DNA of 64,000 nucleotides from a virus. The notes below the pieces were generated by a model, which worked only from the letters and a program-made list of their open reading frames with translations, was not told the origin of the DNA and did not search any database. Shown here one piece after another: positions 6,184-19,739 of this stretch (positions within the stretch are counted from its first letter, which is position 1; every line of letters begins with the position of its first letter). Made by a program: the position numbers and the translations under genes. The stretch lies in the IMG/VR virus record IMGVR_UViG_3300031414_000008, positions 96,001 to 160,000 of that record; one strand, written 5' to 3'.

Positions 6184-6193
6184 AGGTGTAGCA

Positions 6194-6264: not shown

Positions 6265-6296
6265 GACGGTAAAATCTCCTTATTAGGAGAGCCACT

Positions 6297-7067
6297 ATGC
6301 AAAAACAATCATCTTTTATCTTCACGGCACTCGGTGGTCACGTTCTCCAGAACATTGCCGGTGCCAAGCTCGTAAAGTCTAAGGGTTTCCTCGAAGGGAC
6401 GGCGAAAGCCCTCCTCTCGGGAACACTTGCCCGTAATGCCCGACAGGGTACTCTGAAGGAAGGTCTGAAGTCGGCGGTGACGTCGGTGGCAGCACCTGAA
6501 GCTATCATGGCTCAGCGTCGTGCCTACGAGGCCGGGCGTTCACTCTACTCCCGTGCTCGTGCTCTGGGCGTGGATCCGAACAAGCTTACCAAACGTGATG
6601 CGGCGAAGCTCCGTATGGTGGCAGAAGGTCGTCTTCCGGATAAGCAGAAGACGACCCTGACTGAGAAGGCCCGGAGCATGATCGGTGGGAACACCCTTCC
6701 GCCGAAGACGATCAAGGCTGACATGATCAAGGAAGTAACGGAACGTCCGGTCGGTAAGCTTGGCCCTCACTCATCTATTGCGACGATCGGTGCGAACACG
6801 GCCGCGACAGTCCTCGAGCCAGGGGTTGGTCTGCTGAACGCCGCGAAGTTCGGTACCGAATCCAAGGCCTTCCAGAACACTGCTCTGGGCCGTTACGTTG
6901 AGAAGAACTTTGTTCACAAGCCACTCTCCGGGGCTTTCAAGTCCGGTGCTGAAGGTCAGGCCATGAACAAGCTCAAGAGCTTCGGCTACACGTACGGCGT
7001 CAACGGTGCAATCGGTAAAGCCATCGAGGGCGCCCACAAAGCCGGTACTAAAATGCCTAAGAAATAA
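6297..7067 (+). CDS. basic Ala/Gly/Lys-rich protein, possible head-internal protein
   Basis: AGGAG RBS; composition resembles the 8.0-11.9 kb block. Confidence 0.6.
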
Positions 7068-7077
7068 GGTATAAGTA
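7068..7077 (+). promoter_or_regulatory. GGTATAAGTA promoter-like motif
   Basis: Recurrent motif followed by CTG-TGTAA. Confidence 0.7.
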
Positions 7078-7100
7078 CTGTGTAAAAGAGGAGTATTATC

Positions 7101-7163
7101 ATGGCAGGTTGGACACTAATCGTAGTATGTGCACTCGTGGCATACTGGATGTGGAATCAGTAA
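7101..7163 (+). CDS. 20-aa membrane peptide [20 protein letters not shown]
   Basis: GAGGAG RBS; first ORF after the promoter motif. Confidence 0.5.
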
Positions 7164-7182
7164 GGAGCTTCGGCTCCTTTTT
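7164..7182 (+). terminator. short intrinsic terminator
   Basis: GGAGC-TTCG-GCTCC-TTTTT. Confidence 0.55.
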
Positions 7183-7192
7183 AGGAGACGCT

Positions 7193-7336
7193 ATGTACAA
7201 GCACAATCGCGGAGTGATCAAGGAGAGTGCCGTGAAGGCCATTCTCCAAGATCCTCTTTTTAGCCAGAAAGTGGAAAAGCCCAAGAAGGGCAAGGGCTCT
7301 TACCGTCGGGTTAAAGCGGTAAAGGCTTACCTTTAA
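7193..7336 (+). CDS. arfA: alternative ribosome-rescue factor A (47 aa)
   Basis: [38 protein letters not shown] aligns with the E. coli ArfA core; AGGAG RBS. Confidence 0.9.
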
Positions 7337-7481
7337 ACTTAATCACCCGGGTGGGGCTCAGGTACTTCTTCGCCTTCGCGGCTAGAGTCCCCACCGAACC
7401 TTCACGAATCGCCTTCGGCCCGGGCTTCCGGGAGTTGGCGGCAATGCTGTAGTTGCTGGCAAATCTTGCTGGATTCTCCAT
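7311..7481 (-). CDS. small basic protein convergent on arfA
   Basis: GGAGG RBS before ATG 7481, 56 aa. Confidence 0.5.
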
Positions 7482-7545
7482 ACGTACCTCCAAATTGATT
7501 TTATCCCGTTCTCCCTGTATAGTCGAGGAAAACAGGAGACTCCCT

Positions 7546-8025
7546 ATGAACTACTACGTAAGTGCCTTCTCTTGGCGTAACCTCCCCAAGTTCCCGATCG
7601 ACATCGAAGACTTCACTCAGTTCCATCCGTGCTACGACCTCCTCGAAGAGAAGCTGCGGGAGAATCCCAACGCGTACTTCACCATCCAGATCACCCTGGA
7701 GGAGGAAAACCCTGAGGACGATCAACAGTTTATCATCCAGTACCGCTACGCCGAACCCGGTAAAATCAATGCCATCCTATGCAATGACAAGGAGCAGTGT
7801 CTGCACGACAACTACCTCCTGTTCATTACAGCGGAGCACAAACTTAAAGGTGTGCCAATTGACGCCCAGGCTGAAGAAGATCCCGAAGACATTGTTAAAA
7901 TCATCTTAGAATATGGCGGACACATCGCCCAAGGCATCCAGTGGGCCGCCTTCCTTCTACGGGAGAACGGTGAGCGGGGCCTTACTCAGTATTTCGATGA
8001 TTTACCAACACAGGAGCTCCACTAA
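7546..8025 (+). CDS. acidic hypothetical protein
   Basis: AGGAG RBS before ATG 7546. Confidence 0.65.
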   Translation: MNYYVSAFSWRNLPKFPIDIEDFTQFHPCYDLLEEKLRENPNAYFTIQITLEEENPEDDQQFIIQYRYAEPGKINAILCNDKEQCLHDNYLLFITAEHKLKGVPIDAQAEEDPEDIVKIILEYGGHIAQGIQWAAFLLRENGERGLTQYFDDLPTQELH

Positions 8026-9830
8026 TGACTGAAAGCACGAAGACGCTGAACTCCACGGCGTCTACTCTCAAGAAGAACCCTGGACGCATTGGCCGATTGG
8101 TCAAGGCAGCCAAGCTTCTGATCGTGCCTCCTAAACAGTACGCCACCGGTAAGTCCAAAGAGTTGCTCGAAGCAGCTGTCGCTAAGCTCAAGGCCAAGCG
8201 GGGACTTAACGGGGTCGTCGGGGAAGGTGCGGGTCCGTTCTCGGACAAAGCCCTGCAGAAATCTGCAGCGGATGAAGGCAAGACGATGGTCGCAGGTACC
8301 GCAGCCGGTGCCTTGACCGCTAACGCTATCGCCGGACCGATTCGTTCAGCGAAGGCGGATAGTCATCTCAGCCGTATGCATAAGACTAAACGTGACAAAG
8401 ACTTCAAGAAGGTCCTTGCCGGCAAGATGCCGAAGCGGGATACCTTGAAGTTCGATGATACTGCAGGTCGCCGTATCGGTAAGGTTCTAAAGAAGAGCGT
8501 CCGGTACACTACCGGTAAGGGTGCGGCAGCAGGTGCAGTACTGACGGGAGCCGCGTTGCTCGGCCGTCAAATGAAAAAAGAGGCTAGCATGAACAAAGAA
8601 GCAGTAGACAAATCAACGAAGGACAAGGCCCTGGCGGCTTCGGCAGTCGGTTCCGGTGCGGCACTGGGAGGCGTACTGACTCATGACGCGAAGAAGTCTC
8701 GTGTGGCTTCCCGCCTGGGCACTAAGGGTGCGTACAAGCACATGGCCAATCCTTCGGTAGAGGGTGCAGCGAAGCGTCTGGCGGACTCTGCCAAGACGAT
8801 GCGTCGTATGGGTAAACCACTGAAGCGTGCTGGCATTAAGGGTGCGATCGTGGGTGGTCTGGCCGGTGCCGCACTGGGTGCCGCTCACCTGAAGAAGGAA
8901 GCGGAAGTCGTCGATATGGCGGCTGAACGTAACAAGCGTGCCGCTGACAAGATGTCTCAGTCACAGAAGACCTTCAAAGCGATGAAGGGTCGTGGCGAAG
9001 CCGCTAAGAAGCTGGCCAGTAAAGCTAAGCTGAAAGGTGCGGGTAAGCTCGGTCTGGCTGCCGCTGCAGGCGCTGCAGTTGGTGCTGCAGTAGCTGGCCA
9101 CAAGAAAGAAGCAGGCATCCTGAACTCCCGTACCGTTCAGCAACGTGGTGCCCAAGCCCTCAAGGTTCTGAAGCGTGCCCAGAGCATTGAGAAAGTCAAA
9201 GTGGATCGTCTCAAGAGTCACGCTAAGAAAGGCCTGGTAGGCGGTGCGATCGTCGCTGGCGGCGTTGCCGTGACCAAGAAAAATGAGGAGCTGAAGAAGC
9301 AAGCCGCTGCCCTCGTGATCAAGGACGGCAAGAAGTACCGTAAGGGTACTGTGGGTTCAGCAGCTTCTAAGGTTGCGACCGCGGCAGGTGTCGTCTCTGC
9401 TCTGCGTGGGCGTAACCTCAAGGGTGTCGCGAAGTCTGTCCTGAAGGGTGGAGCACTGGGTGGTGCCTACGGTACCGTTCGTGGCGCTAACCGTCTGCGT
9501 AAAGGCGAAGTGTCTCTGTCCAAGGACGAGATGAAGAAGCTGACCAAGAAGGCCGCCGAGCTGCTACACCACAATGGTCAAGACATTCGTCGTGGAACCA
9601 TCGGTTCTGCAGCCGGTAAGATGGCCCTGACCGGTGCTGGCCTCGGTGCCCTGGCGGGTCTGGCGGCAGGTCCGGTCGGGATGGTTGCCGGTGGTGCTAT
9701 CGGCGGATTTAACGGTGCGGTCACCGGCGGTCTGTACGGTATTGCCCGTGGCGCTCTGCGTTCACAGGACGGGGAAGTCTCAATGGATCCAACGAAGTTC
9801 GATAAACTGAAGGCGAAGGTATCTAAATGA
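8025..9830 (+). CDS. modular basic glycine-zipper protein with repeated K-x-A motifs
   Basis: 601 aa; repeated basic + GAxxG hydrophobic units separated by KKEA/KKQA/KKAA. Confidence 0.65.
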   Translation: MTESTKTLNSTASTLKKNPGRIGRLVKAAKLLIVPPKQYATGKSKELLEAAVAKLKAKRGLNGVVGEGAGPFSDKALQKSAADEGKTMVAGTAAGALTANAIAGPIRSAKADSHLSRMHKTKRDKDFKKVLAGKMPKRDTLKFDDTAGRRIGKVLKKSVRYTTGKGAAAGAVLTGAALLGRQMKKEASMNKEAVDKSTKDKALAASAVGSGAALGGVLTHDAKKSRVASRLGTKGAYKHMANPSVEGAAKRLADSAKTMRRMGKPLKRAGIKGAIVGGLAGAALGAAHLKKEAEVVDMAAERNKRAADKMSQSQKTFKAMKGRGEAAKKLASKAKLKGAGKLGLAAAAGAAVGAAVAGHKKEAGILNSRTVQQRGAQALKVLKRAQSIEKVKVDRLKSHAKKGLVGGAIVAGGVAVTKKNEELKKQAAALVIKDGKKYRKGTVGSAASKVATAAGVVSALRGRNLKGVAKSVLKGGALGGAYGTVRGANRLRKGEVSLSKDEMKKLTKKAAELLHHNGQDIRRGTIGSAAGKMALTGAGLGALAGLAAGPVGMVAGGAIGGFNGAVTGGLYGIARGALRSQDGEVSMDPTKFDKLKAKVSK

Positions 9831-10498
9831 GTAAAGAAAGCGCCAAGAACGAAGGACGTAAATCGGCGCTAGCAGGGGCGGCTTCGGCCGTCCTCGCTTC
9901 CAAGTCGTCGAAGAACATCCTCGGCTATGAGAAAGTTCACCACGGCACCCAAACACTCTCCGCAGCACAGAGTATTCGGGAGAAAGGAATTCTCAAGCGT
10001 CATTCCGGGTCGGGGATAGCTAAAGATGACATTGCCCTAGGTCATTTATCGCCGAAAGAGGCTAAAGGTAAGGTTTACACGAGTACGAGCAAACATCTTG
10101 CGGACGCTCATCGTCCTAAGATGGGGGCTATGCACATGGGTGATCGAGTGACGGCCCGTATGCCATACCGAGCGAAGCACCGTTTGGGAGAAGACACCGT
10201 ATTCGCCAATGCTGCCAAAGGTAAGATCGGAGATCCTTCCGATGTAGCCCCTGCTAAGCGAGCGTTGAAGACACTTCGTATTTACAAGCATGACGTGAAA
10301 CCCCGTTTCATCGTCGGTGGTGCACACGATGGCGGTCGTCGTCAGTTCGCAACCAAGGGTAACATGCGTCGGTACCTCTCCCAGGCCGGCGGTAAAGCCC
10401 GTTTCGCTAAGGGTGTTGCCCAGGCAGCCGGTGCGGTCGGTGGCGGCATGTACGCCGTGGCCAAAGCGATCCAAGCCCGGAAGGAGGCGAAGAAATGA
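9827..10498 (+). CDS. ADP-ribosyltransferase-fold protein (KptA/PARP-like)
   Basis: VHHGT...IREKGIL...VYTSTSKHLA pattern. Confidence 0.5.
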   Translation: MSKESAKNEGRKSALAGAASAVLASKSSKNILGYEKVHHGTQTLSAAQSIREKGILKRHSGSGIAKDDIALGHLSPKEAKGKVYTSTSKHLADAHRPKMGAMHMGDRVTARMPYRAKHRLGEDTVFANAAKGKIGDPSDVAPAKRALKTLRIYKHDVKPRFIVGGAHDGGRRQFATKGNMRRYLSQAGGKARFAKGVAQAAGAVGGGMYAVAKAIQARKEAKK

Positions 10499-10881
10499 GT
10501 TTGTACAAGTACGCCAAGACCTTGAACGAAATCAAAGAGGAACGTTCTCACCGTAACCGCCGTCTGAAGGCGGCCCCGTACATCGTAGGCGGACTGGCGG
10601 GGGCGGCTTCGATCGCCCACGACACGACCCGCAAGACCGGAGCCTCACAGATGAAGTGGAAAGGCGGGAAGCTGACGAAGGTTCCTCAGCGTCAGTACCA
10701 CTTGCTGCGTAACGGCGGTGCATCCATCGGTAAACACGTGGAGAACTCCGTGATGCGTGCAGCACCTAAGGCCGCTGCTGCCGGTTTCCTGACAGCCGGT
10801 GCCGGCGCTCTGTATAAGTACGTTGCAGAGGAACGAGCTCGTCGTCAAGAGAAAGCACGACGTGCGGAACTCGCTAAATAA
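10495..10881 (+). CDS. basic glycine-zipper protein
   Basis: MSLYKYAK N-terminus, two GxxxG segments. Confidence 0.6.
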   Translation: MSLYKYAKTLNEIKEERSHRNRRLKAAPYIVGGLAGAASIAHDTTRKTGASQMKWKGGKLTKVPQRQYHLLRNGGASIGKHVENSVMRAAPKAAAAGFLTAGAGALYKYVAEERARRQEKARRAELAK

Positions 10882-10900
10882 GGCCCTTCGGGGCCTTTTT
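10881..10900 (+). terminator. intrinsic terminator
   Basis: AGGCCC-TTCG-GGGCCT-TTTT. Confidence 0.85.
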
Positions 10901-10903
10901 AGT

Positions 10904-10913
10904 GGTATAAGTA
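10904..10913 (+). promoter_or_regulatory. GGTATAAGTA promoter-like motif
   Basis: Immediately after the terminator. Confidence 0.7.
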
Positions 10914-10928
10914 TAGTGGAGGTAACCT

Positions 10929-11105
10929 ATGTTACTAGAAAAACTGCTCGACCTGTATAACCGGGGTGATCTCGAGGCTCTTCGACAGGCTGTCATTGAG
11001 AATCAAGACACACTGACTTTCAACGCAAATCTCTTGGTATCTTACCCAGACTTCACGGCCCAGTGCCTTAAAATTCTGGAAGAAACCAAGAGGAATTCTT
11101 CATGA
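10929..11105 (+). CDS. hypothetical protein (58 aa)
   Basis: GGAGG RBS; ATGA overlap with the next gene. Confidence 0.6.
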   Translation: MLLEKLLDLYNRGDLEALRQAVIENQDTLTFNANLLVSYPDFTAQCLKILEETKRNSS

Positions 11106-11872
11106 TCAAGTACGCGTATAAACTGGCGGATTTCGCCAAAGGGATCAAAGCAGTCCGGGCCAAGGGATTGGTCCACCGCCGCAACCTCACCGTCCACATG
11201 GACCCGGATGCCGCAAAGGTAACGATGCCGACCACTAAGGGCCAGGGTAACGGTCCGATGGCGTTAACCATGCACGGCAAAGACATCTCCGGTCACCGAG
11301 AGGGCTGGCATGTTGACTTAAATTCTCACCGGAAGGGTATCTACGCCCGCGGTCAGGCCCATAACGTTCTGAACGATGTCCACAAATCGATGCACCCTCA
11401 CGGCATTGACAGTAAGAGTATGAGCGGGGGCGACCGTAAGGCGGCCAACCACATCGTTCTTCGTCATGAAATGGATGAGCACCGTGCCTTGAAAGACTTG
11501 CGGAAGCACCACAAGAACAACAACGGTAGCTCCTTCGTCGGAACCTCTCACTTGGCCCCGTCTGTTCTGCTCCGTGAGAGCAACAACGTGGCTAAGCTCG
11601 GGGCCGGTACCCGCAGTAAAGAACTCTACCACAAGGCTAAAGGTCTCATGGTTTCAACGCGTCGTTCAAGCGGAGAAGCCGATCACCTGAAAGGTATGAT
11701 CGAGAGTTACCAGGCACCGAAGCGTAAGAACGTGGTGTTCAAGAACCATAAGCCAACTCACGCTCCGATGAACTATGAGTATGGTAAGACTCGACTCTCC
11801 CGTCACGCGATCAAGGCGATGGACAAGGCGTCGATCCGTCAAGGCCACACCGTGGTCGTGCCGAAGAGTTGA
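11102..11872 (+). CDS. basic His-rich protein with HExxE motif
   Basis: MIKYAYKLA N-terminus; LRHEMDEH. Confidence 0.6.
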   Translation: MIKYAYKLADFAKGIKAVRAKGLVHRRNLTVHMDPDAAKVTMPTTKGQGNGPMALTMHGKDISGHREGWHVDLNSHRKGIYARGQAHNVLNDVHKSMHPHGIDSKSMSGGDRKAANHIVLRHEMDEHRALKDLRKHHKNNNGSSFVGTSHLAPSVLLRESNNVAKLGAGTRSKELYHKAKGLMVSTRRSSGEADHLKGMIESYQAPKRKNVVFKNHKPTHAPMNYEYGKTRLSRHAIKAMDKASIRQGHTVVVPKS

Positions 11873-11924
11873 TCTACCGCTTTTTAGCTGGTAAGATCTT
11901 TCCGACTACTCACAGGAGAACACT

Positions 11925-12152
11925 ATGAAAGACCAACACACCAAGATTAAAGGCTATCGTGATCTGGACCAATGGGATATCGACACCATGAATCGCATCA
12001 AGGACGCCGGTAACGCACTGGGCGCTCTGATCGAAGACCTGCAGGCCCAAGAGGGTATCGATCAAGTCTTCCTGGCGACCGGTAAGGCCGACGTCCAGAA
12101 AGGTCTGGCGATGATCATCCGTTCGATTGCCCAACCGTCAACGTTCTGCTAA
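11925..12152 (+). CDS. acb2: anti-CBASS sponge protein Acb2 homologue
   Basis: QHTKIKGYRDL...MNRIK...GKADVQKGLAMIIRSIAQP matches the Acb2 family pattern. Confidence 0.85.
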   Translation: MKDQHTKIKGYRDLDQWDIDTMNRIKDAGNALGALIEDLQAQEGIDQVFLATGKADVQKGLAMIIRSIAQPSTFC

Positions 12153-12286
12153 TGTACGATTGGTTGGCGGTAATTATGCTCTACGTCTGCATGGGTACGA
12201 TGCTCTGTGCGGCGATGAGGGAATGTCAGAGGGCCGGGAAATCGGGACCCCTTATCGAATTCATTGGTAACTCATTCATTCCGTAA
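12152..12286 (+). CDS. small membrane protein (44 aa)
   Basis: TAATG coupling; hydrophobic N-terminus. Confidence 0.45.
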   Translation: MYDWLAVIMLYVCMGTMLCAAMRECQRAGKSGPLIEFIGNSFIP

Positions 12287-12291
12287 ATCCT

Positions 12292-12314
12292 AAAGCTCCT
12301 TCGGGAGCTTTTTT
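12292..12314 (+). terminator. intrinsic terminator
   Basis: AAAGCTCC-TTCG-GGAGCTTT-TTT. Confidence 0.85.
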
Positions 12315-12325
12315 ACATTTAGGGG

Positions 12326-12355
12326 TTGACACCCTGTTCGCCACTCGGTTATGAT
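12326..12355 (+). promoter_or_regulatory. sigma70-type promoter
   Basis: TTGACA-18-TATGAT. Confidence 0.75.
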
Positions 12356-12360
12356 CAGTC

Positions 12361-12519
12361 CATCGCTCCCTGGTACGTGGGAGGATAAAACGGCAGCGGA
12401 TCTCACTGGGCCCTCTCTTTGAAGATCACTGATAACGTACAAGGCAGGGTTTTTCATAGGGTTGCTCCCTCGGTTTTTACCCCTTAGCCGGTAGTCACGC
12501 CGGTGCCGACAGAGTGATG
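12361..12519 (+). ncRNA. rod-like structured ncRNA candidate
   Basis: 5'/3' end pairing CATCGCTC/GAGTGATG plus further nested helices; starts at the predicted +1. Confidence 0.55.
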
Positions 12520-12523
12520 GTGC

Positions 12524-12599
12524 GGTTCTGTAGCTCAGCGGTTAGAGCGCTCGCCTGTTAAGCGAGGGGTCGATGGTTCAAATCCATCCAGTTCCGCCA
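12524..12599 (+). tRNA. tRNA-Asn(GTT)
   Basis: Loop CT-GTT-AA, CCA. Confidence 0.93.
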
Positions 12600-12622
12600 A
12601 ATATTTCAACCAGGAGAAGATA

Positions 12623-12925
12623 ATGGCACATATCGTTGGTCAACTTACTGCAGCAGAACCTAAGGGTCCTGCTTACACGCTGGAAAGTCTGGAGAACCAC
12701 GCGACTCACGTTCGCACAAACACTCTGGACATCAACGCGGGACTGCGTAAAGTCTTAACTCTTCTCCGCGGTGAGGAGCTCTGTGGTCAGGGACTCAGTG
12801 AATCCACCCCGGTCTGTGGCAAATTGGCAGAGATCTCGGTTATTCTGCAAGGCACTCGCAGCAATCAGGATGAAACCTTCCGATTGGTCGCTGAGTTGCA
12901 GAGTTTGTTAAATGTTGACGCCTGA
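12623..12925 (+). CDS. hypothetical protein
   Basis: AGGAG RBS, 100 aa. Confidence 0.7.
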   Translation: MAHIVGQLTAAEPKGPAYTLESLENHATHVRTNTLDINAGLRKVLTLLRGEELCGQGLSESTPVCGKLAEISVILQGTRSNQDETFRLVAELQSLLNVDA

Positions 12926-12956
12926 ACAGAGTAGGGCGTACGAGAAGTTAAGCGTT

Positions 12957-13041
12957 GGGGCGGTGGCGGAATTGGCAGACGCACTGGATTTAGGTTCCAG
13001 CGGGGCAACCCGTGAGAGTTCAAGTCTCTCCCGCCCTACCA
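12957..13041 (+). tRNA. tRNA-Leu(TAG)
   Basis: Loop TT-TAG-GT, variable arm, CCA. Confidence 0.95.
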
Positions 13042-13044
13042 AAG

Positions 13045-13128
13045 CCGAGAGTGGTGAAGTGGAAAACACAGGTGACTTAAAATCATCCGCTTAAATGCTC
13101 GAGGGTTCGAATCCCTCCTCTCGGACCA
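13045..13128 (+). tRNA. tRNA-Leu(TAA)
   Basis: Loop CT-TAA-AA, variable arm, CCA. Confidence 0.95.
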
Positions 13129-13130
13129 AA

Positions 13131-13214
13131 GAGCTTATTTGCCCGCGTACGGTGAGGACGAAACCAGTTTACTGGGGCGTGCCAATTAACTACGGTGCGG
13201 GGCCAAATAAGCTT
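13131..13214 (+). ncRNA. structured inter-tRNA RNA
   Basis: 11-bp terminal stem GAGCTTATTTG/CAAATAAGCTT plus CCCGC/GCGGG. Confidence 0.5.
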
Positions 13215-13216
13215 TT

Positions 13217-13292
13217 GCTTCAATAGCTCAGTTGGTAGAGCAACCGCCTTGTAAGCGGTAGGTCGTGGGTTCGAAGCCTACTTGGAGCACCA
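13217..13292 (+). tRNA. tRNA-Thr(TGT)
   Basis: Loop CT-TGT-AA, CCA. Confidence 0.95.
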
Positions 13293-13483
13293 TGGACATA
13301 GTGAAAGACAGCCTAGTGAAAGACGGAAAGTTGATCGTCCACATAGGCCGAGAGGACATTGACGGGACACGTTTCTTCCTGTTAACGCCGGAGACGGCCG
13401 TCGAAGTCCGCAAGTTAATCGATAAGTTTCTGGATGGACAGGGAGAAGATACTGGGGCAGGCGCCAGCAAGGTATCTGAGTGA
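13292..13483 (+). CDS. hypothetical protein (63 aa)
   Basis: GGAG upstream inside the tRNA 3' end; ATG overlaps the CCA. Confidence 0.45.
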   Translation: MDIVKDSLVKDGKLIVHIGREDIDGTRFFLLTPETAVEVRKLIDKFLDGQGEDTGAGASKVSE

Positions 13484-13508
13484 GGTTCGATTCCTTACAC
13501 ATCCACCA
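13432..13508 (+). ncRNA. D-armless tRNA-like element
   Basis: GGATG/CATCC-A-CCA, T arm GTGAGG-TTCGATT-CCTTAC, long arm AGATAC/GTATCT. Confidence 0.5.
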
Positions 13509-13509
13509 T

Positions 13510-13584
13510 GCATCACAAGTGTTGTCGGTGGCACAGCGTCCTTCCAAGTCGCAGGGACCGGTTCGAGACCGGTGTGATGCTCCA
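13510..13584 (+). tRNA. tRNA-Gly(TCC)
   Basis: Loop CT-TCC-AA, U73, CCA. Confidence 0.93.
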
Positions 13585-13648
13585 AATTAGTCTCCTAGCC
13601 AGGTAGTCCTGGTGAATTCCGGCAATGTAGTCGGAAGGGAGCACAAAC

Positions 13649-13724
13649 GGTAGTGTAGCTCAGTTGGCAGAGCGACTCCCTCATAAGGAGGAGGTCGGTG
13701 GTTCAATCCCACCCATTACCACCA
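13649..13724 (+). tRNA. tRNA-Met(CAT) (elongator, or Ile2 if lysidinylated)
   Basis: Loop CT-CAT-AA, CCA. Confidence 0.9.
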
Positions 13725-13828
13725 GATAGTTGATGCAGTGCCCGTAATGGAGGTGATCACTATCTTGATGGTCCTAATGGACAAGTCCTGCAGTACCGCC
13801 GCGAGGCAGCACACAGGGGCGAACCAAT

Positions 13829-13903
13829 TGCGAGGTAGAGAAGCGGCATCTTGCCAGCCTCATAAGCTGGAGATCGGTGGTTCGAGTCCACCTCTCGCAT
13901 CCA
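13829..13903 (+). tRNA. tRNA-Met(CAT), probably initiator-like
   Basis: TGCGAGG acceptor, loop CT-CAT-AA, CCA. Confidence 0.85.
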
Positions 13904-13974
13904 ACAGATCAGCCGAACCGATGTACCATTAATAGTGCACTAAGTGCCTTAATGATCGTTTTATGGTACATCGG

Positions 13975-14051
13975 TGCGGCCGTATCCTAAGTGGCAAGGA
14001 CCCAGGTTGTGATCCTGGTCTACGTGGTTTCGATTACCACCGGTCGCCCCA
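13975..14051 (+). tRNA. tRNA-His(GTG)
   Basis: Loop TT-GTG-AT, C73, CCA; position -1 is T rather than G. Confidence 0.9.
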
Positions 14052-14065
14052 AACAGGAGATTCCT

Positions 14066-14224
14066 ATGAAGCCTTACGGTTTGAAGCTCGGCGGAAACCC
14101 AGGTTGTAACTGCGGTCGATGTCGTCGTCGTGGTTGGCGTGAAGGCGCTACTCAGAATACAATCTGCAAGTCTTCCGCACGACAGGAAGCAAAGCGTATC
14201 ATCAATGGCGAGTTGGCAGAGTGA
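14066..14224 (+). CDS. small basic Cys-containing protein (52 aa)
   Basis: AGGAG RBS; PGCNCGRC. Confidence 0.6.
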   Translation: MKPYGLKLGGNPGCNCGRCRRRGWREGATQNTICKSSARQEAKRIINGELAE

Positions 14225-14280
14225 CTATGTGCTCGGTTGCAACCCGAGTTAGAGAGGTTAGAATCCTCTACTCGCCTCCA
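14207..14280 (+). tRNA. tRNA-Cys(GCA)
   Basis: Loop TT-GCA-AC, U73, CCA. Confidence 0.93.
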
Positions 14281-14287
14281 AATTAAG

Positions 14288-14316
14288 TTGACACTTCAGT
14301 ACATTCCTCGTACTAT
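14288..14316 (+). promoter_or_regulatory. sigma70-type promoter
   Basis: TTGACA-17-TACTAT. Confidence 0.8.
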
Positions 14317-14323
14317 TCTCTCT

Positions 14324-14397
14324 GGGGGCTTCGTCTAGTGGTAAGACAACAGCTTCCAAACCTGATAACCGGCGTTCGATTCGTCGAGCCCCTGCCA
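14324..14397 (+). tRNA. tRNA-Trp(CCA)
   Basis: Loop TT-CCA-AA, G73, CCA. Confidence 0.9.
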
Positions 14398-14408
14398 GAG
14401 AGAACACT

Positions 14409-14585
14409 ATGCAAATCCTTAAAGCTGTAGACCTCCTGCATGATGCCGGAGCCATCACTACCGAATTTCATACTCAAGTTCATGCTGCGAGCAAGGACAA
14501 ACCGTCTTTGTACTTAACGCTCATCGTCAAGGTACTTGAGATCATCGTCAAAGTCGTGAAGTACCTCGCGGAGAAACGCAAATGA
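14409..14585 (+). CDS. hypothetical protein (58 aa)
   Basis: Open frame with ATGA coupling to the next gene. Confidence 0.55.
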   Translation: MQILKAVDLLHDAGAITTEFHTQVHAASKDKPSLYLTLIVKVLEIIVKVVKYLAEKRK

Positions 14586-14770
14586 ACTACGAACAGTTAA
14601 AGAAAGACGTCCACGCCATCTATTTAACCGGAGAGATTCCGCAGTGGGTGGCACTCTACGTCATGGGCTTGAAGCCTTCTAAGCGTTGGATCATCACGAA
14701 GCTCCACCTCGGGATCCAGTTCATCGTGAAGAAGATCCTGGAAGACATTAAGAATGACCGTAAAGACTAA
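14582..14770 (+). CDS. hypothetical protein
   Basis: GGAG RBS, 62 aa. Confidence 0.6.
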   Translation: MNYEQLKKDVHAIYLTGEIPQWVALYVMGLKPSKRWIITKLHLGIQFIVKKILEDIKNDRKD

Positions 14771-15017
14771 TATTCGCGTCACACGGATCAAAAACAACTG
14801 GCATTCCCGTTTGTTCGTCAACGGGTTGCTGGTTGACGAGATGTCGTGTAAACTGAAAGAAGACATCGGTTGGTGTTGCCGTACGATGATGCGGTGGGCC
14901 GATAAGATGGGTAGGGGCAATGCTCATACCTCCAGTGCTCGACACCGCAATGTAGGCGGTCCTGTCGGGCAGGTGAAGTACCTAGGTAAATATATTACGG
15001 AGAAAATCATGCTGTAG
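14754..15017 (+). CDS. hypothetical protein ending at the TAG shared with the Pth-like frame
   Basis: 87 aa, same frame as 15018-15341. Confidence 0.6.
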   Translation: MTVKTNIRVTRIKNNWHSRLFVNGLLVDEMSCKLKEDIGWCCRTMMRWADKMGRGNAHTSSARHRNVGGPVGQVKYLGKYITEKIML

Positions 15018-15341
15018 AACAAACACTGGATTTACACTTTCGTTCGTTACGATCTGCCACTCGAGCAGATTCTCGTTCAGTCCAACCATGCCTCTCACGA
15101 AGGCGCCCTGAAGTACCCTTACACCTCCGCAGAACCGAACTCGCTGATCGTCATTGGCGTGAAGAACAAGGCCGCCCTCGAGAAGGCCCTGGATCGCTAC
15201 GCCCATTTTGACCCCACGCCTTTCTACGAACCCGACTGGGATTACGGCTTAACGGCCTTCACTACTCGTCCGGTCACGGCAGAAGAACGTGCAGAATTCC
15301 GCAAGTATCAGCTCTTCCGGGGGTCACATGTACGCAACTAA
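15009..15341 (+). CDS. Pth2-like peptidyl-tRNA hydrolase with in-frame TAG at codon 3
   Basis: GGAG-6nt-ATG CTG TAG, then NKHWIYTFVRYDLPLEQILVQSNHA...LIVIGVKNKAAL...EPDWDYGLTA (Pth2 pattern). No ATG/GTG/TTG between the TAG and the catalytic motif. Confidence 0.75.
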
Positions 15342-15864
15342 TCTTCCCGACCTCATCGCTCGGATGGAAGCCTGTGAGCAGACCTCCGGACTCTCCGTTC
15401 TGGAACACGGCCATATGGTCCACGAGAGCTACCTACAGCTCGTCCAAGAGCTCGAGCAAGGCGTTGGTCCGGTTACGCTCCAGAACCTCTGGGAGTGGCT
15501 TAGAGAGCGTCTGGTGAGCCCTGATGAAATCCGTACGTACCAGATCTACCACGACTGCGGTAAGCCCGTGTGTGCCCGCGATGGCCACTTCCCAGAGCAT
15601 GCAAAGCACTCGTGTAAGCAGTGGGCAGCGATCTACGGGAACGGGACAGTCTCCCGACTCATGGGTCTCGACATGTGCTTCCACTTAATGAACGCCGCCC
15701 AGGCTTCGACCTTCTGGAAGAACCCGCTCGCCCCTACGCTCTACGTCACGGCATGGGCCGAGATCCGAGCGAATGCCGGGATGTTCGGCGGTGAGGACTC
15801 CGTGTCATTCAAGAAGAAGCGTAAGCGCCTGGAGCGTGCCGGCCGTGCTCTAAAATTAGGGTGA
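15328..15864 (+). CDS. HD-domain phosphohydrolase
   Basis: VLEHG...YHDCGKP...HFPEHA...DMCFH; overlaps the end of the Pth-like gene. Confidence 0.7.
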   Translation: MYATNLPDLIARMEACEQTSGLSVLEHGHMVHESYLQLVQELEQGVGPVTLQNLWEWLRERLVSPDEIRTYQIYHDCGKPVCARDGHFPEHAKHSCKQWAAIYGNGTVSRLMGLDMCFHLMNAAQASTFWKNPLAPTLYVTAWAEIRANAGMFGGEDSVSFKKKRKRLERAGRALKLG

Positions 15865-15876
15865 ACAGGAGGGACT

Positions 15877-16215
15877 ATGAACTTTTCACCTTTGATTCTT
15901 GAGAGTATGGGCTACCACTGGGTGACCCGGGCGCCGCTCGTGTACAACCGTGACACAGAGGTCATCACCGTTCCGGAAGGCTTCTCGACAGATCTTGCGT
16001 CCGTCCCGAAAGCACTCTGGGCCGTGATGCCACCGTTCGGCAACCATACGAAGGCAGCGGTGCTACACGACTACCTGTACGGTCAAGGCCTGCGTCCACG
16101 TAAGCAGTGCGATGAGATCTTCCTCGAAGCCATGGCTCTGATGGGCGTATCGAAGACGCGGCGTTACTTGATGTACTGGGCAGTTCGAGCCTTTGGTTCA
16201 AAAGCTTACGGATAA
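15877..16215 (+). CDS. DUF1353-like protein
   Basis: ITVPEGFSTDLASVP...AAVLHDYLY. Confidence 0.75.
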   Translation: MNFSPLILESMGYHWVTRAPLVYNRDTEVITVPEGFSTDLASVPKALWAVMPPFGNHTKAAVLHDYLYGQGLRPRKQCDEIFLEAMALMGVSKTRRYLMYWAVRAFGSKAYG

Positions 16216-16217
16216 TG

Positions 16218-16246
16218 TTGACAGGTCAAGGACGACCTGATATCTT
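16218..16246 (+). promoter_or_regulatory. sigma70-type promoter with inverted repeat in spacer
   Basis: TTGACA-17-TATCTT; CAGGTC/GACCTG. Confidence 0.75.
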
Positions 16247-16314
16247 TAGACCATCAATTGAGCCTCCAAGCGGTTGATGACCTCAAGGTCTGGGACGAGC
16301 ATCCCGGCCTTTCT

Positions 16315-16389
16315 GCCTGAGTAGCTGAGCGGTTTAGCAGGAGCCTCTAAAACTCTGGAACGTGGGTTCGAATCCCACCTCAGGCACCA
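16315..16389 (+). tRNA. amber suppressor tRNA (anticodon CTA)
   Basis: Perfect acceptor GCCTGAG/CTCAGGC, A73, CCA; anticodon arm GGAGC-CT-CTA-AA-ACTCT; canonical T arm. Confidence 0.9.
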
Positions 16390-16395
16390 AATCTA

Positions 16396-16593
16396 GTGTG
16401 TAGCTTAAATGTAAAAGCCTGGAGAATCTAAGTGCCCGTCATGGCGACGTGGAATACTGGACGAACTGCAGAGATGGTGACAACGAAATGTCATCCACAC
16501 GTGGCGGGTAGTTCAACGTAAGAACGCGAAAGTACCCAGGTCGTGGAGACTTGAGTATGGACGAAATGAGAGTGACGTAACACCTCTCCGCCA
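16396..16593 (+). ncRNA. two tandem ~100-nt homologous tRNA-like RNAs
   Basis: Shared D-like arm, AGTRCCC..GTC-RTGGM-GAC arm and TGGACGAA exactly 100 nt apart; the second copy ends in GCCA. Confidence 0.6.
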
Positions 16594-16600
16594 GATATTC

Positions 16601-16678
16601 GGGTGTGTAGCTCAGCTGGTTAGCAGCATCGGACTTTTAATCCGAGGGTCGTAGGTTCGAAGCCTACCACACCCACCA
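16601..16678 (+). tRNA. tRNA-Lys(TTT)
   Basis: Loop CT-TTT-AA, CCA. Confidence 0.95.
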
Positions 16679-16680
16679 CC

Positions 16681-16757
16681 GCACTTGTAGCTCAGTGGAT
16701 TAGAGCGCCCCGCTACGGACGGGGAGGTCGAGGGTTCGAATCCTTCCTGGTGCACCA
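16681..16757 (+). tRNA. tRNA-Arg(ACG)
   Basis: Loop CT-ACG-GA, CCA. Confidence 0.95.
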
Positions 16758-16779
16758 CTTCCCAATCTCCGGATTCCTT

Positions 16780-16789
16780 GGTATAATAA
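16780..16789 (+). promoter_or_regulatory. GGTATAATAA promoter-like motif (variant)
   Basis: Intergenic, upstream of the small-gene array. Confidence 0.6.
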
Positions 16790-16818
16790 ACATACCGTCC
16801 ACTACCCGGAGTTTTCCC

Positions 16819-17022
16819 ATGAAAGACAAATTCGGCAATCCGCTTAATCACGGAGACACTGTCGTCTATTTCTCAACGAATCTGTACCACACGGCCCATA
16901 TCGGGATTTACCAGGAGGAAGTTCCTGGGAAAGGCGTCCGCCTCATCTCTGAGAAGGGCAATCCGATTCACCGTCCGGCCAACACCCTTATCGCTTACAC
17001 AGGGATCAATCCTAACTCATGA
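16819..17022 (+). CDS. small beta-barrel family protein, copy 1
   Basis: DKFGNPLNHGDTVVY. Confidence 0.65.
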   Translation: MKDKFGNPLNHGDTVVYFSTNLYHTAHIGIYQEEVPGKGVRLISEKGNPIHRPANTLIAYTGINPNS

Positions 17023-17210
17023 GATTCTACGCGAAGGACGAGCTCAAGCCGCTCATTCAGTACCGCGGAGAGTCTGATCATACGGAGTGGGCTCTGTGGA
17101 TCGGCGATATTTTTATCATCCAGAAAGACGGCGGACCTTTCCGCATGCAGCACCCGGACGATGACCTTGGTCTACCCGTCTTCAAACCCTATAAGGATCC
17201 CGTACTATGA
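17019..17210 (+). CDS. hypothetical protein
   Basis: ATGA coupling. Confidence 0.55.
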   Translation: MRFYAKDELKPLIQYRGESDHTEWALWIGDIFIIQKDGGPFRMQHPDDDLGLPVFKPYKDPVL

Positions 17211-17473
17211 TGTTCTCGTATCACCGTAACGGTAAAGAGGAGGATATCCTCGATAAGTCAGAGTTGGTCGTCGGCCAGACCTACAAGGGCCGCTGCCGGA
17301 ATGCCACTGAGGCAGTCTGGAACGGTAAGCAGTTCGAGTATCAACGTACGAAGTTCACCTTCACGTACACCGACTACATCAACCATCCCGAAGACGACAA
17401 CGGCTTCGACGTGTTCATGCCATTACGGAGGCTCAATGAAGGACTGTCAGGGGAAACCTGTCCATCTGAATGA
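17207..17473 (+). CDS. hypothetical phage protein
   Basis: LVVGQTYKGRCRNATEAVWNG...HPEDDNGFDVFMP. Confidence 0.65.
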   Translation: MMFSYHRNGKEEDILDKSELVVGQTYKGRCRNATEAVWNGKQFEYQRTKFTFTYTDYINHPEDDNGFDVFMPLRRLNEGLSGETCPSE

Positions 17474-17651
17474 CATCGTGGTGACCGGTTGGAACGGTGG
17501 GGACTTAGTCCCCGGCCGTGTTATCGCCATCGGTCCGAATCGCTGTCGTCTTTTAGTTGAAGAACCGCACGCGGCGAACCGCAAGGTTTACCGCCACAGC
17601 TCACAAGTGAGTCTCACAGGAGATAAATATGTTCCAGGACCGAGTGAATAA
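17436..17651 (+). CDS. small beta-barrel family protein, copy 2
   Basis: GGAGG RBS; DCQGKPVHLNDIVV. Confidence 0.65.
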   Translation: MKDCQGKPVHLNDIVVTGWNGGDLVPGRVIAIGPNRCRLLVEEPHAANRKVYRHSSQVSLTGDKYVPGPSE

Positions 17652-17823
17652 CCCGCTAACGATCGGTGATCGTGTAGCCTACAGTGTCAGTGACCGTTCG
17701 ACCCGTCTCGGCGTCGGCCACATTCAGTCATTCACCCCGAAGCGTGTCCGTGTGCAGGATGAACGCACCGGCTCCGTTTCAGATCATCAGGCAGACCGTA
17801 TCGTGAAGGTGCCTCATGCATAG
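17629..17823 (+). CDS. small beta-barrel family protein, copy 3
   Basis: DRVNNPLTIGDRVAY...FTPKRVRV. Confidence 0.7.
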   Translation: MFQDRVNNPLTIGDRVAYSVSDRSTRLGVGHIQSFTPKRVRVQDERTGSVSDHQADRIVKVPHA

Positions 17824-18019
17824 TGATCAGCGGGGCATCCCGCTTGAGGTCGGTGACACCGTCGTGTGGTCTTCGATGGAAACGGCCGGTGTCGATATTG
17901 GAACAGTCGTCGGGTTCACCCCGAAGAAGATCCGTGTTCGCGGGCTTACTCAGCATCCAGATTATTCCCGGCTGAAAGAGCCGATGTATATACTCAAAGT
18001 GGAGCTTCCAAATGCATAA
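17816..18019 (+). CDS. small beta-barrel family protein, copy 4
   Basis: DQRGIPLEVGDTVVW...FTPKKIRV. Confidence 0.7.
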   Translation: MHSDQRGIPLEVGDTVVWSSMETAGVDIGTVVGFTPKKIRVRGLTQHPDYSRLKEPMYILKVELPNA

Positions 18020-18200
18020 TGACGCAACGGGTAAACCCCTCGCCATCGGCGATAAGGTTGTGTACGCAGGCAGTTACCGTGCCAATCTCCGTCAGGGGTG
18101 GGTCTCGGACTTCACACCTAAGCGTGTGCGTATCACGTACGAAGAAAACGGTCAGGGCGGCGTGATCAAAGATCCTCTGCAAATCGCGAAGGTAGAATGA
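18012..18200 (+). CDS. small beta-barrel family protein, copy 5
   Basis: DATGKPLAIGDKVVY...FTPKRVRI. Confidence 0.7.
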   Translation: MHNDATGKPLAIGDKVVYAGSYRANLRQGWVSDFTPKRVRITYEENGQGGVIKDPLQIAKVE

Positions 18201-18388
18201 TGGACTTCTTTGGACAAACTCTCTGTGTCGGCGATCGCGTCGCCTTCGTGACCAACAAGGGGTATCTCCGGACGGCTCAGATCCTCTCGTTCTCCGGTGT
18301 TGCCCCTCACCAAACGGTTCACCTCATGACTGACAAGAACCGTAAAACCCAAGCCCCTGCCAGCTACGTCATCAAGGAGCCACTATGA
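18197..18388 (+). CDS. small beta-barrel family protein, copy 6
   Basis: DFFGQTLCVGDRVAF. Confidence 0.7.
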   Translation: MMDFFGQTLCVGDRVAFVTNKGYLRTAQILSFSGVAPHQTVHLMTDKNRKTQAPASYVIKEPL

Positions 18389-18606
18389 AAGTGGATGCCA
18401 TGGGTCAGACCCTTGAAGTCGGACAGGTAGTGCTCGTCCCGTCAGCGAAGGTCGGTAACGACTCCGGCCTACGGTTCGGCGTCATCAAGAGCATCGGAGA
18501 GGTTCGGGTCGTGATCACGCCACTGGCAGATCACCCTAAGCGTGTCCGTGCTCCTCGTAACGGCACCCAGCGTTACTTCGAGGACGTCCTCGTCGTTCAA
18601 CTGTAA
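18385..18606 (+). CDS. small beta-barrel family protein, copy 7
   Basis: DAMGQTLEVGQVVLV. Confidence 0.7.
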   Translation: MKVDAMGQTLEVGQVVLVPSAKVGNDSGLRFGVIKSIGEVRVVITPLADHPKRVRAPRNGTQRYFEDVLVVQL

Positions 18607-18617
18607 GCCCGGCATGG

Positions 18618-18627
18618 GGTATAAGTA
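18618..18627 (+). promoter_or_regulatory. GGTATAAGTA promoter-like motif
   Basis: Recurrent intergenic motif. Confidence 0.7.
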
Positions 18628-18657
18628 ATGTGACAACAACCACAGGAGCTTTACCCC

Positions 18658-19398
18658 ATGCGTATTCAACTCAATCCTCAAGACCGTTTCATCTTCCACT
18701 CGGCTGTCGCCGCTCAGGACATCCAGTTCATCCTCAATGACCTGAACTCTCAGCTCTTCTACGACACGCCGAATTCGCTCTCGACGGGCATACTCGGCAA
18801 TCACTTACTCAACCCAATACCGATGGGTAACGGCAACCCGTATACTCTGCCGTACTCCACTATCGAGTTCGATACGTCCTTACTCCTCGATCCGACGATC
18901 ACGGTCCAGGCCGAGTCTCTCTTCGATGGCTTCCGCATCTTCTTCCTCCACTCCGATGGATTCTTCACGAACTGCACGCTGTACCTCGAATTCGATTCGT
19001 ACCTGACGCTTCGCAACTTCGGAATCTCATTCGGTCCGTTCGCGAAGTCTCACCCGCACGAACGTCGCATGGTCATGAATGCGGCCTTCATCGATCTGCC
19101 AACAATCCTCGGCTACATCGTGGATACCAACTCCCGTAACCGCATCCCTTTCACCCTCGGTGAACCGCGTCAGTACAACGTTCTGGATAATCACGATTCC
19201 CAACCGGTTCAGAATCTCGGCGACATCCGTCAGATCACGAACCCACGTGACAATCCGACCGGTATCACCAAGCGCCCTCATGAACGTGCAGGCCACACCC
19301 GCCAGTTAGCAGATGGCCGCATCATCGACGTTTCGCCGACCACGGTGCACCGCGATGACTTCGAAGGTGACGATCGTCCTAAAATTATCAAACACTAA
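18658..19398 (+). CDS. hypothetical protein
   Basis: AGGAG RBS; C-terminal HERAGHTR motif. Confidence 0.7.
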   Translation: MRIQLNPQDRFIFHSAVAAQDIQFILNDLNSQLFYDTPNSLSTGILGNHLLNPIPMGNGNPYTLPYSTIEFDTSLLLDPTITVQAESLFDGFRIFFLHSDGFFTNCTLYLEFDSYLTLRNFGISFGPFAKSHPHERRMVMNAAFIDLPTILGYIVDTNSRNRIPFTLGEPRQYNVLDNHDSQPVQNLGDIRQITNPRDNPTGITKRPHERAGHTRQLADGRIIDVSPTTVHRDDFEGDDRPKIIKH

Positions 19399-19399
19399 C

Positions 19400-19428
19400 T
19401 TGACAGTCTCTGGGCTCCGTGTAATACT
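19400..19428 (+). promoter_or_regulatory. sigma70-type promoter
   Basis: TTGACA with TAATACT about 16-17 nt downstream, before four tRNAs. Confidence 0.6.
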
Positions 19429-19434
19429 GGGCCC

Positions 19435-19507
19435 AGATGATTAGCTCAGTTGGGAGAGCGGCTCCCTTACAAGGAGTAGGTCAACAGTTCGATCCTGTTA
19501 TCATCTA
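19435..19507 (+). tRNA. tRNA-Val(TAC), CCA not encoded
   Basis: Loop CT-TAC-AA; AGATGAT/ATCATCT-A. Confidence 0.88.
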
Positions 19508-19508
19508 T

Positions 19509-19584
19509 TGGGGAGTAGCTCAGTTGGTAGAGCGTTCGACCGATAATCGAAAGGTCGCGAGTTCGAGCCTCGCCTCTCCAACCA
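19509..19584 (+). tRNA. tRNA-Ile(GAT)
   Basis: Loop CC-GAT-AA (C33), CCA. Confidence 0.9.
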
Positions 19585-19586
19585 AT

Positions 19587-19661
19587 GCACGATTCGTCTA
19601 TCGGTTAGGACACCACTCTTTCACAGTGGGAAGAGGAGTTCAATTCTCCTATCGTGTACCA
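19587..19661 (+). tRNA. tRNA-Glu(TTC)
   Basis: Loop CT-TTC-AC, CCA. Confidence 0.93.
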
Positions 19662-19663
19662 CC

Positions 19664-19739
19664 GCCTCGGTAACTCAGTTGGTAGAGTTCCCGACTCTTA
19701 ATCGGAGAGCCGCTGGTTCGAGTCCAGCCCGGGGCACCA
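19664..19739 (+). tRNA. tRNA-Lys(CTT)
   Basis: Loop CT-CTT-AA, CCA. Confidence 0.93.

Follow-up and report, generated by a model that had tools for sequence, protein, structure and literature searches.

Phages that use genetic code 15 (crAss-like, Lak and other gut phages) encode a tRNA with the anticodon CUA, tRNA(CUA), which decodes in-frame TAG codons in phage genes, and the expression of the genes concerned is tRNA-dependent. A related arrangement is described here for a 64,000-nucleotide stretch of the virus record IMGVR_UViG_3300031414_000008. This whole stretch, hereafter the window, covers bases 96001-160000 of a complete 182,632-bp record with terminal repeats. The window contains a gene resembling peptidyl-tRNA hydrolase 2 (Pth2), with an in-frame amber TAG as its third codon, and a tRNA(CUA) gene ~1 kb downstream. 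We consider it likely that the two form a module, in which a stop-reading tRNA is combined with a Pth2-like gene carrying the cognate stop in its first codons, and that translation of the gene depends on the tRNA. The recoded phages have lost TAG as a terminator and use it as a sense codon in many genes, most of them late. In contrast, only one gene carries an in-frame TAG here, always at codons 2-6, and it is this gene to which the tRNA is genetically linked.

The prfB gene for release factor 2 (RF2) is also a translation-related gene with an early in-frame stop, at which decoding competes with a release factor and the output reports the state of termination or decoding. The stop UGA of prfB is escaped by a +1 frameshift, and the product recognises the stop. 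At the present locus, in contrast, the frame is unchanged, the proposed escape is via a cognate suppressor tRNA, and the product has a predicted Pth2 fold. The pyrrolysine system is similar in its dedicated tRNA(CUA), pylT, linked to particular genes with in-frame UAG, and ARAGORN labels the window tRNA as 'Pyl' from the anticodon alone. The two systems differ in three respects. No match to PylS (TIGR02367) was found in the complete 182,632-bp phage genome, the UAG lies in a variable N-terminal leader and not at a catalytic residue, and the acceptor stems of the phage tRNAs are diverse.

The archaeal and eukaryotic Pth2 proteins (PF01981; 3erj, 2zv3, 1q7s and 1xty) resemble the phage protein in their alpha/beta fold, with a template modelling (TM) score of 0.6-0.7, and in the motif R-x-D-L...Q-x-x-H-A. 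The phage family differs in being often paired or fused with an HD-like domain and in the replacement of the GK and DAG stretches. The bar minigenes of phage lambda and other minigenes of two to three codons have the same layout of a Shine-Dalgarno (SD) sequence, AUG, one or two codons and a stop, and they share with Pth the theme of peptidyl-tRNA drop-off. Those minigenes stand alone and become toxic under Pth limitation, whereas the mini-frame described here continues in frame into a conserved gene and has a stop for which the phage carries the matching tRNA.

Many large standard-code phages carry stop-reading tRNAs, and to our knowledge their purpose is known to nobody. The target of the CUA suppressor tRNAs of phage XacN1 could not be identified (PMC5852040), and only speculation on the role of the suppressor tRNA was offered for phage RsoM2USA (PMC8504454). 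A full-text search of the literature returned no account of a Pth2-like gene whose early stop is cognate to a linked phage suppressor tRNA. The finding falls within programmed readthrough and suppressor-tRNA recoding, and the stop-bearing Pth2-like module may explain the suppressor tRNAs of such standard-code phages. The client gene was overlooked because of the stop at codon 2-6, which leads gene callers to omit the gene or to call it too short, and the leader of 1-5 codons is never annotated.

Structure of the stop-bearing gene

The start of the Pth2-like gene had been described by an earlier model reading made without database searches (the sequence-only reading) as GGAG, a 6-nt spacer, ATG 15009, CTG, TAG, a following A and an open frame. 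This anatomy was confirmed letter by letter (Table 1). The base after the TAG is the A of AAC at 15018, and the full gene, 15009-15341, encodes 110 residues when the UAG is decoded.

The first in-frame ATG, GTG or TTG past the leader TAG is GTG 15159, which is 47 codons on. The sequence-only reading had held that a start at this GTG, as chosen by the open reading frame (ORF) caller, cuts off the key N-terminus. This was borne out, as the invariant R10, D12, Q17, Q21, H24 and A25 would be deleted. The stretch from the TAG to GTG 15159 must be translated, because it holds these family-invariant residues together with the first strand and helix of the Pth2-like fold in the AlphaFold2 model.

Conservation of the leader

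The Pth2-like gene was searched by tblastn in 50,697 phage records and was found in 29 of them, all large tRNA-rich phages, where it is mostly unannotated or truncated. In GenBank, the gene is uncalled or truncated in Yen9-04, BF, the pEa_SNUABM phages, RsoM2USA, GAP32 and Arash. Salmonella phage Arash is the closest cultured relative of the window phage, with 86% nucleotide identity over the Pth2-like region and 96% identity at the protein level; its gene is annotated as a 50-aa 'peptidyl-tRNA hydrolase' fragment, gp84c. Two IMG/VR scans added 42 loci (L013-L033, L090-L110). The leaders were tabulated for 41 loci, pooled from the phage records, the IMG/VR loci and two short ENA contigs (L086, L089).

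These 41 loci represent ~30 lineages and share one pattern: a start codon, 0-4 further codons, an in-frame stop, a purine, and then the Pth2-like N-terminus. Cultured phages with this leader include Arash, BF, GAP32, CBB, ME3, RsoM2USA, XacN1 and Xoo-sp13. The stop is at codon 2-6, most often codon 3. An SD-like motif is located 5-11 nt ahead of the leader start in 32/41 loci. The base following the stop is A in 31 loci and G in 10, and it is a pyrimidine in none (0/41). Amber suppression in E. coli is favoured by a purine, and most of all by A, on the 3' side of the stop.

The leader codons themselves vary, and include ML, MSH, MTH, MAQ, MAH, MRS, MKS, MT, MK, MKK, MH, MS, VR and others. The leader is ML-stop in the window, Arash and RsoM2USA, MSH-stop in Yen9-04, MTH-stop in BF and LR756511, MAQ-stop in GAP32 and CBB, MT-stop in ME3 and MK-stop in LR756500. 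When the domain order changes, the leader moves with the gene. It stands ahead of an HD-Pth2 fusion in XacN1 (MK-stop), Xoo-sp13 (MKK-stop) and CM1 (MK-stop), and the CM1 fusion gene has no ATG after the leader TAG. Most loci have no start codon between the leader stop and the conserved N-terminus. The downstream frame of 107-129 codons is intact and conserved across assemblies and isolates.

The protein identity between these ~30 lineages is 30-60%. The presence of the stop at the same early position in lineages so diverged argues for selection on the Pth2-like gene rather than drift. The sequence-only reading had suggested collecting phage homologues and asking whether a ribosome-binding site, an ATG, a few codons and a TAG are conserved together with a CUA tRNA. 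That comparison has now been made, and the arrangement is conserved in ~30 lineages and co-occurs with the tRNA.

Protein databases carry the same mark. Among the best 150 representatives from 1.84 billion proteins, many homologues begin at false starts and are truncated. Where the gene caller may read TAG as Q, the homologues come out full-length, with the 'Q' exactly at the leader-stop position. Proteins starting with M-X-Q are of this kind, and the database look-up states so for P0001 and P0004.

A double gate was also observed. Loci L097 (3990-4090) and L098, which are identical in sequence, have an SD, MRPFQ-stop-TKEEYG-stop and then the Pth2-like N-terminus, with a tRNA(CUA) 457 nt upstream.

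Co-occurrence of stop codon and anticodon

A tRNA(CUA) was found in 28/30 lineages with a TAG leader, mostly 0.1-3.5 kb from the gene and often within 100-1000 nt. It lies less than ~3.5 kb away in the window, Arash, L013-L016, GAP32, BF, L026-L033, ME3, LR756500, L091, L093, L094, L097, L098, L100-L102, L105 and L106. It is elsewhere in the genome in CBB, G003, G004, LR756511, CM1, Xoo-sp13, G007 and G008. A CUA tRNA has been reported for RsoM2USA (PMC8504454) and XacN1 (PMC5852040). Locus L096 is at a contig end and is listed among the exceptions.

Two loci have a TGA leader, L092 (MES-stop) and L110 (MVFT-stop). Each has a tRNA(UCA) 115-270 nt upstream and no tRNA(CUA), and TGA is an ordinary terminator in both loci. 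The stop type and the anticodon thus correspond, with TAG and CUA at 28/0 and TGA and UCA at 0/2 (Fisher p = 0.002, ignoring shared ancestry).

Homologues without a leader stop come from seven lineages, and for five of these no suppressor tRNA was found in the genomes or contigs. The complete genome G005 has 21 tRNAs, with no suppressor among them. No suppressor tRNA was found in G009, G010 and L107, or in 7/9 tRNA-like matches of Hallingskeid. The matching tRNA is present/absent in 30/2 lineages with a leader stop and in 2/5 lineages without (Fisher p = 7e-4, again ignoring shared ancestry).

The locus of G005 (L025, 2950-3030; IMGVR_UViG_3300046457_000084) has an SD and a leader ORF, MKSQETIINQ, that ends at a TAG; this ORF is shifted by one base relative to the Pth2-like frame, and the V of Y-V-F is encoded by GTG. 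This is the sole close homologue whose complete genome is without a suppressor tRNA, and judged from sequence it looks like a decayed or rewired gate. A +1 frameshift at the out-of-frame leader TAG was considered for this locus and rejected, as there is no slippery site.

Genetic code of the phage

A crude gene call over the whole genome gave 254 ORFs, ending in TAA (142), TGA (93) and TAG (19). The genome was also scanned for ATG-X(0-3)-TAG with at least 80 open codons behind it, and the Pth2-like site was the only one with an SD and without a nearby start. By these counts the genome is standard-code, with no genome-wide TAG recoding (code 15), and the Pth2-like gene is the only one that needs its TAG read through. 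The sequence-only reading had also taken the phage to be standard-code, and TAG indeed still ends 19/254 of the crude ORFs.

Other candidate sites were rejected. After a second ATG CTG TAG, at window 7444-7452, come TTG and an open frame of 190 codons; the upstream context of this site is unconvincing, the likely start is an internal ATG (MNYY...), and the match was judged to be chance. In two TAG-ended ORFs with long in-frame extensions (genome 119299-119907 and 67877-68212), the part after the stop starts with an SD and ATG of its own, so neither ORF is a readthrough client.

A pseudogene or an assembly error would account for a stop in this position, and annotators of GenBank records did leave the gene uncalled or truncated in several phages. 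This explanation is effectively refuted, since dozens of independent assemblies and isolates have the TAG together with an intact downstream frame. The same ATG CTG TAG is present in Arash, L013-L016 and X2, an independent RNA-library contig. Contigs of four further samples carry the stretch, one of them from an RNA library at a depth of 136. X2 has 14 differences between 14700 and 15584, all outside ATG CTG TAG. The assembly error that the sequence-only reading had named as a possible refutation is ruled out by this recurrence.

The putative suppressor tRNA

ARAGORN reads the anticodon as cta in the tRNA at 16315-16389. Rfam RF00005 scores this tRNA at 61.7 bits, with a gathering score of 29, which is within the range of other phage tRNAs. 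The window tRNA has A37 and A38. The string CTAAA (CUA plus A37 and A38) is invariant in 16/16 aligned phage CUA tRNAs, a pattern as in tRNAs reading U-starting codons, and the acceptor stems in the same alignment are widely different. The window tRNA(CUA) shows no obvious descent from any of the 24 other tRNAs in the window.

The Arash orthologue of the tRNA (L001:2810-2884; OQ632216.1 ~49173-49247) is labelled 'tRNA-Phe' in GenBank, and ARAGORN reads it as CUA.

Identity of the Pth2-like protein

The window protein has zero matches above the Pfam or NCBIfam thresholds, PF01981 and TIGR00283 included, and in PHROGs it matches families of unknown function only. The best of these is phrog_34073, with 77 positions covering residues 36-103, a span that fits gene calls cut short at the N-terminus. 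A profile of 13 homologues matched the Pth2 structures 2zv3 and 24bt in the PDB at E 2.3e-5 and, more weakly, AF2095, Bit1 and Ta0108. More distant homologues all pass the PF01981 cut-off of 23 bits: XacN1 at 25.3, Xoo-sp13 at 29.5 and Hallingskeid at 23.5.

The AlphaFold2 model of the window protein has a predicted local distance difference test (pLDDT) score of 87 and a predicted TM (pTM) score of 0.80. Foldseek ranks 1-13 in the PDB were all Pth2 (including 3erj, 2zv3, 1q7s, 1wn2, 1xty and 1rlk), with TM 0.58-0.71 and prob 1.0. The R-x-D-L and Q-x-x-H-A motifs are present, and R10, D12, Q21, H24, A25, T79 and A80 are kept. On profile and fold prediction, the window protein is a member of the Pth2 superfamily with a Pth2 fold. 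The sequence-only reading had called it Pth2-like, a call that is upheld by the profile, by the PF01981 scores of the homologues and by the predicted fold, while Pfam, NCBIfam and PHROGs give no such name to the window protein itself.

A hidden Markov model (HMM) alignment to 2zv3 places E16-Q17 at the Pth2 G-K loop and E71-P72-D73 at the D-A-G-x-T stretch, and Q17 and E71 are invariant. The G-K loop after R-x-D-L and the D-A-G-x-T stretch are reportedly catalytic in S. solfataricus Pth2. The same chemistry as in Pth2 is not assumed, because these stretches are replaced.

Proposed mechanism

In the mechanism that we propose, ribosomes would initiate at ATG 15009, directed by the SD GGAG, and would reach the UAG at codon 3. 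The phage tRNA(CUA) would decode this UAG in competition with release factor 1 (RF1), giving the 110-residue Pth2-fold protein. When the UAG is not decoded, only a dipeptide would be made, and the early position of the stop would keep the abortive product that short. The expression of the Pth2-like gene would then track the activity of the phage's own suppressor tRNA. The sequences show the anatomy, the predicted fold, the conservation, the co-occurrence and the covariation of stop and anticodon; the making and charging of the tRNA and the readthrough itself, like the inserted residue, the substrate of the enzyme and the purpose of the gate, are inferred. The sequence-only reading had proposed that the Pth2-like N-terminus is made only through UAG readthrough by the phage tRNA(CUA). 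This is strongly supported by comparative evidence: the conserved leader, the covariation of stop and anticodon, the lack of an alternative start and the use of TAG as an ordinary terminator. The ideas that the same reading attached to it, of readthrough when RF1 is limiting and of drop-off at a Met-Leu minigene, are conjectural.

Readthrough might also fuse the Pth2-like protein to an upstream 87-aa ORF, as the sequence-only reading had added. The two are in frame in the window and its closest relatives, L013 and L016, but not in Arash, L014, L015 or any other locus, so the in-frame fusion is probably incidental.

The gate could serve as a timer, as a reporter of the phage tRNA pool, as a restriction of a tRNA-active enzyme to infected cells, or as feedback on suppression. 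A closed circuit may also be imagined, in which the Pth2-like and HD-like enzymes act on the suppressor tRNA, or on peptidyl-tRNAs or stalled ribosomes that arise from suppression; their synthesis would rise with suppression and then limit it or clean up after it. We hold this circuit to be doubtful. If true, it would be a self-contained homeostat, or a sensor of charged phage tRNA versus RF1, that times or protects the takeover of translation.

The presence of a conserved client gene makes the question of suppressor-tRNA function testable in the cultured phages Arash, GAP32, CBB, BF, ME3, XacN1 and RsoM2USA, and the annotation of dozens of genomes can be corrected. The module also offers a natural, compact and orthogonal tRNA-and-stop expression switch. 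It may represent an early or alternative stage toward the genome-wide stop-codon recoding of other phages.

Evidence against the mechanism and alternative explanations

Several observations weigh against a tRNA-dependent gate. The anticodon stem of the window tRNA(CUA) (16341-16357) is weakened by a G27.U43 pair and by a mismatch, C31.A39, and the cloverleaf is not reached by thermodynamic folding on its own; the tRNA(CUA) of the relative L015 has U31-A39 at the mismatch position. A strong suppressor would also extend the 19 TAG-ended phage ORFs and the TAG-ended genes of the host, which should be costly. The canonical GK and DAG motifs of Pth2 are altered in the window protein, and hydrolase activity is not assured. 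The X2 contig from the RNA library shows the presence of the stretch only and not its transcription. The lineages in the co-occurrence counts are not phylogenetically independent, and three of the cases run counter to the pattern. L108 (2890-3160) has a tRNA(CUA) 224 nt upstream, yet its gene has a normal start with SD and ATG CTA AAA GAA (MLKE...). L109 has a fused start with a CUA tRNA nearby, and G006 has a TAG leader with only an odd tRNA that has the 6-nt loop GUUAAA. L108 may be a reverted gate; it has AAA (Lys) at the stop position of its relatives.

The leader could instead be a start-stop element, where ribosomes finish at the TAG and either start anew or are retained there, with the Pth2-like protein made from a nearby non-canonical codon and the tRNA(CUA) having an unrelated job. 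Regulatory mini-ORFs of two or three codons with an SD are known, the leader of L091 is no more than ATG TAG, and a canonical start codon directly follows the stop in L031, L092 and L094. Reinitiation would be indifferent to the type and frame of the stop, yet the leader stop is always in frame and is TAG with CUA and TGA with UCA. The lack of a start before the conserved N-terminus in most loci also speaks against it, as do the residues right after the stop, which are conserved as amino acids, for example N/I-x-K-T-W-I/V-Y. These data make the start-stop explanation quite improbable. Initiation past the TAG, at ATT 15030 and independent of the TAG, had been given as the alternative in the sequence-only reading. 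ATT can initiate in E. coli infC, and the window and Arash both have ATT at the Ile of W-I-Y. The codon is not conserved in relatives, being ATA in Yen9-04 and ATC in BF, with V, N, S or L as the residue elsewhere, and at 27 nt it is too distant from the SD. Initiation at the ATT would leave the conserved SD-ATG-X-TAG and its link to the tRNA anticodon unexplained, and it is very hard to credit.

The suppressor tRNA could also be kept mainly for other ends, such as the extension of TAG-ended host or phage proteins, anti-defence, or a first step to recoding. The readthrough of the Pth2-like gene would then be real, with the gene as a tolerated or secondary client and no dedicated switch. Fully TAG-recoded phages with suppressor tRNAs do exist (PMC10607447, PMC7886860). 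A second CUA tRNA or an additional UUA tRNA is present in some genomes (L033, L101, G007), with the tRNA(UUA) beside the tRNA(CUA) in G007 and L033, and L108 has the tRNA without a gated start. Against this, the leader TAG is the only in-frame TAG found in the complete genome, the gated gene is closely linked to the tRNA in most lineages, and the early stop keeps its position across the diverged lineages. We regard this other-purpose explanation as unlikely, and the tRNA-dependent gate is preferred.

Partner gene and neighbouring features

The Pth2-like gene overlaps a gene for an HD-like protein (Table 1). The AlphaFold2 model of this partner has a pLDDT of 92.7 and contains the motif Y-H-D-C-G-K-P. 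Its best fold matches are 3wfo-3wfs (TMq 0.60, prob 1.0), titled 'tRNA processing enzyme' in the fold library and 'Poly A polymerase' in the PDB sequence file, which we take to be class-II tRNA nucleotidyltransferase. The HD-like protein also has a weak profile match to the same 3wfo-3wfs proteins at the HD[IC]GKP motif, with E 0.056. The HD-like domain is fused N-terminally to the Pth2-like domain in XacN1, Xoo-sp13 and CM1, and the HD-like gene follows the Pth2-like gene also in L014, L015, L025, L026, ME3, L033 and L092. Because they are fused in some phages and adjacent in others, the two proteins are taken, from gene order and modelled fold, to be linked in function, with tRNA 3' ends indicated for both. 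A complex prediction for the two proteins gave a score of 0.00, which speaks neither for nor against binding.

The HD-like and Pth2-like proteins probably act together on tRNA 3' ends. In such a division of labour, the Pth2-like part would carry out ester hydrolysis, and the other part would resemble the C-terminal/HD portion of a tRNA nucleotidyltransferase. Translation of the HD-like gene may be coupled to UAG decoding via the overlap.

The features of the locus are collected in Table 1. They lie in a cluster of 25 tRNA genes on the plus strand (window 3491-19739), with small ORFs between them (DUF1353 and phrog families of unknown function).

Table 1 Features of the Pth2-like locus, with positions numbered in the window.
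Feature	Position	Strand	Remarks
Upstream 87-aa ORF, phrog_12201	14754..15017	+	Stops at the leader TAG and shares the frame of the Pth2-like gene
Shine-Dalgarno GGAG	14999..15002	+	6-nt spacer (AAAATC) to ATG 15009
Leader ATG CTG TAG	15009..15017	+	ATG 15009-11, CTG 15012-14, amber TAG 15015-17 as codon 3
Predicted Pth2-superfamily coding region	15018..15341	+	107 codons and TAA 15339-41
HD-like partner gene, 178 aa	15328..15864	+	Motif YHDCGKP; 14-nt overlap with the end of the Pth2-like gene
DUF1353 gene	15877..16215	+	Normal ATG start; Pfam PF07087, E 1.8e-31; between the HD-like gene and tRNA(CUA); context only
Sigma-70-like promoter match TTGACA-17-TATCTT with TG	16218..16246	+	Consensus match only; before tRNA(CUA)
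tRNA with anticodon CUA, amber suppressor type	16315..16389	+	Encoded CCA end; ARAGORN; Rfam RF00005

A promoter-like match is also present at window 14288-14316, ahead of a tRNA-Trp. Odd tRNAs were returned by ARAGORN for the giant phages G004 (L050 c[13266-13343]), G007 (L141 c118940 and L143 c158908) and G006 (L145 c[158-232]). Among them are the four-base 'anticodons' ttag, aaac and aaag, and one 6-nt loop, GUUAAA.

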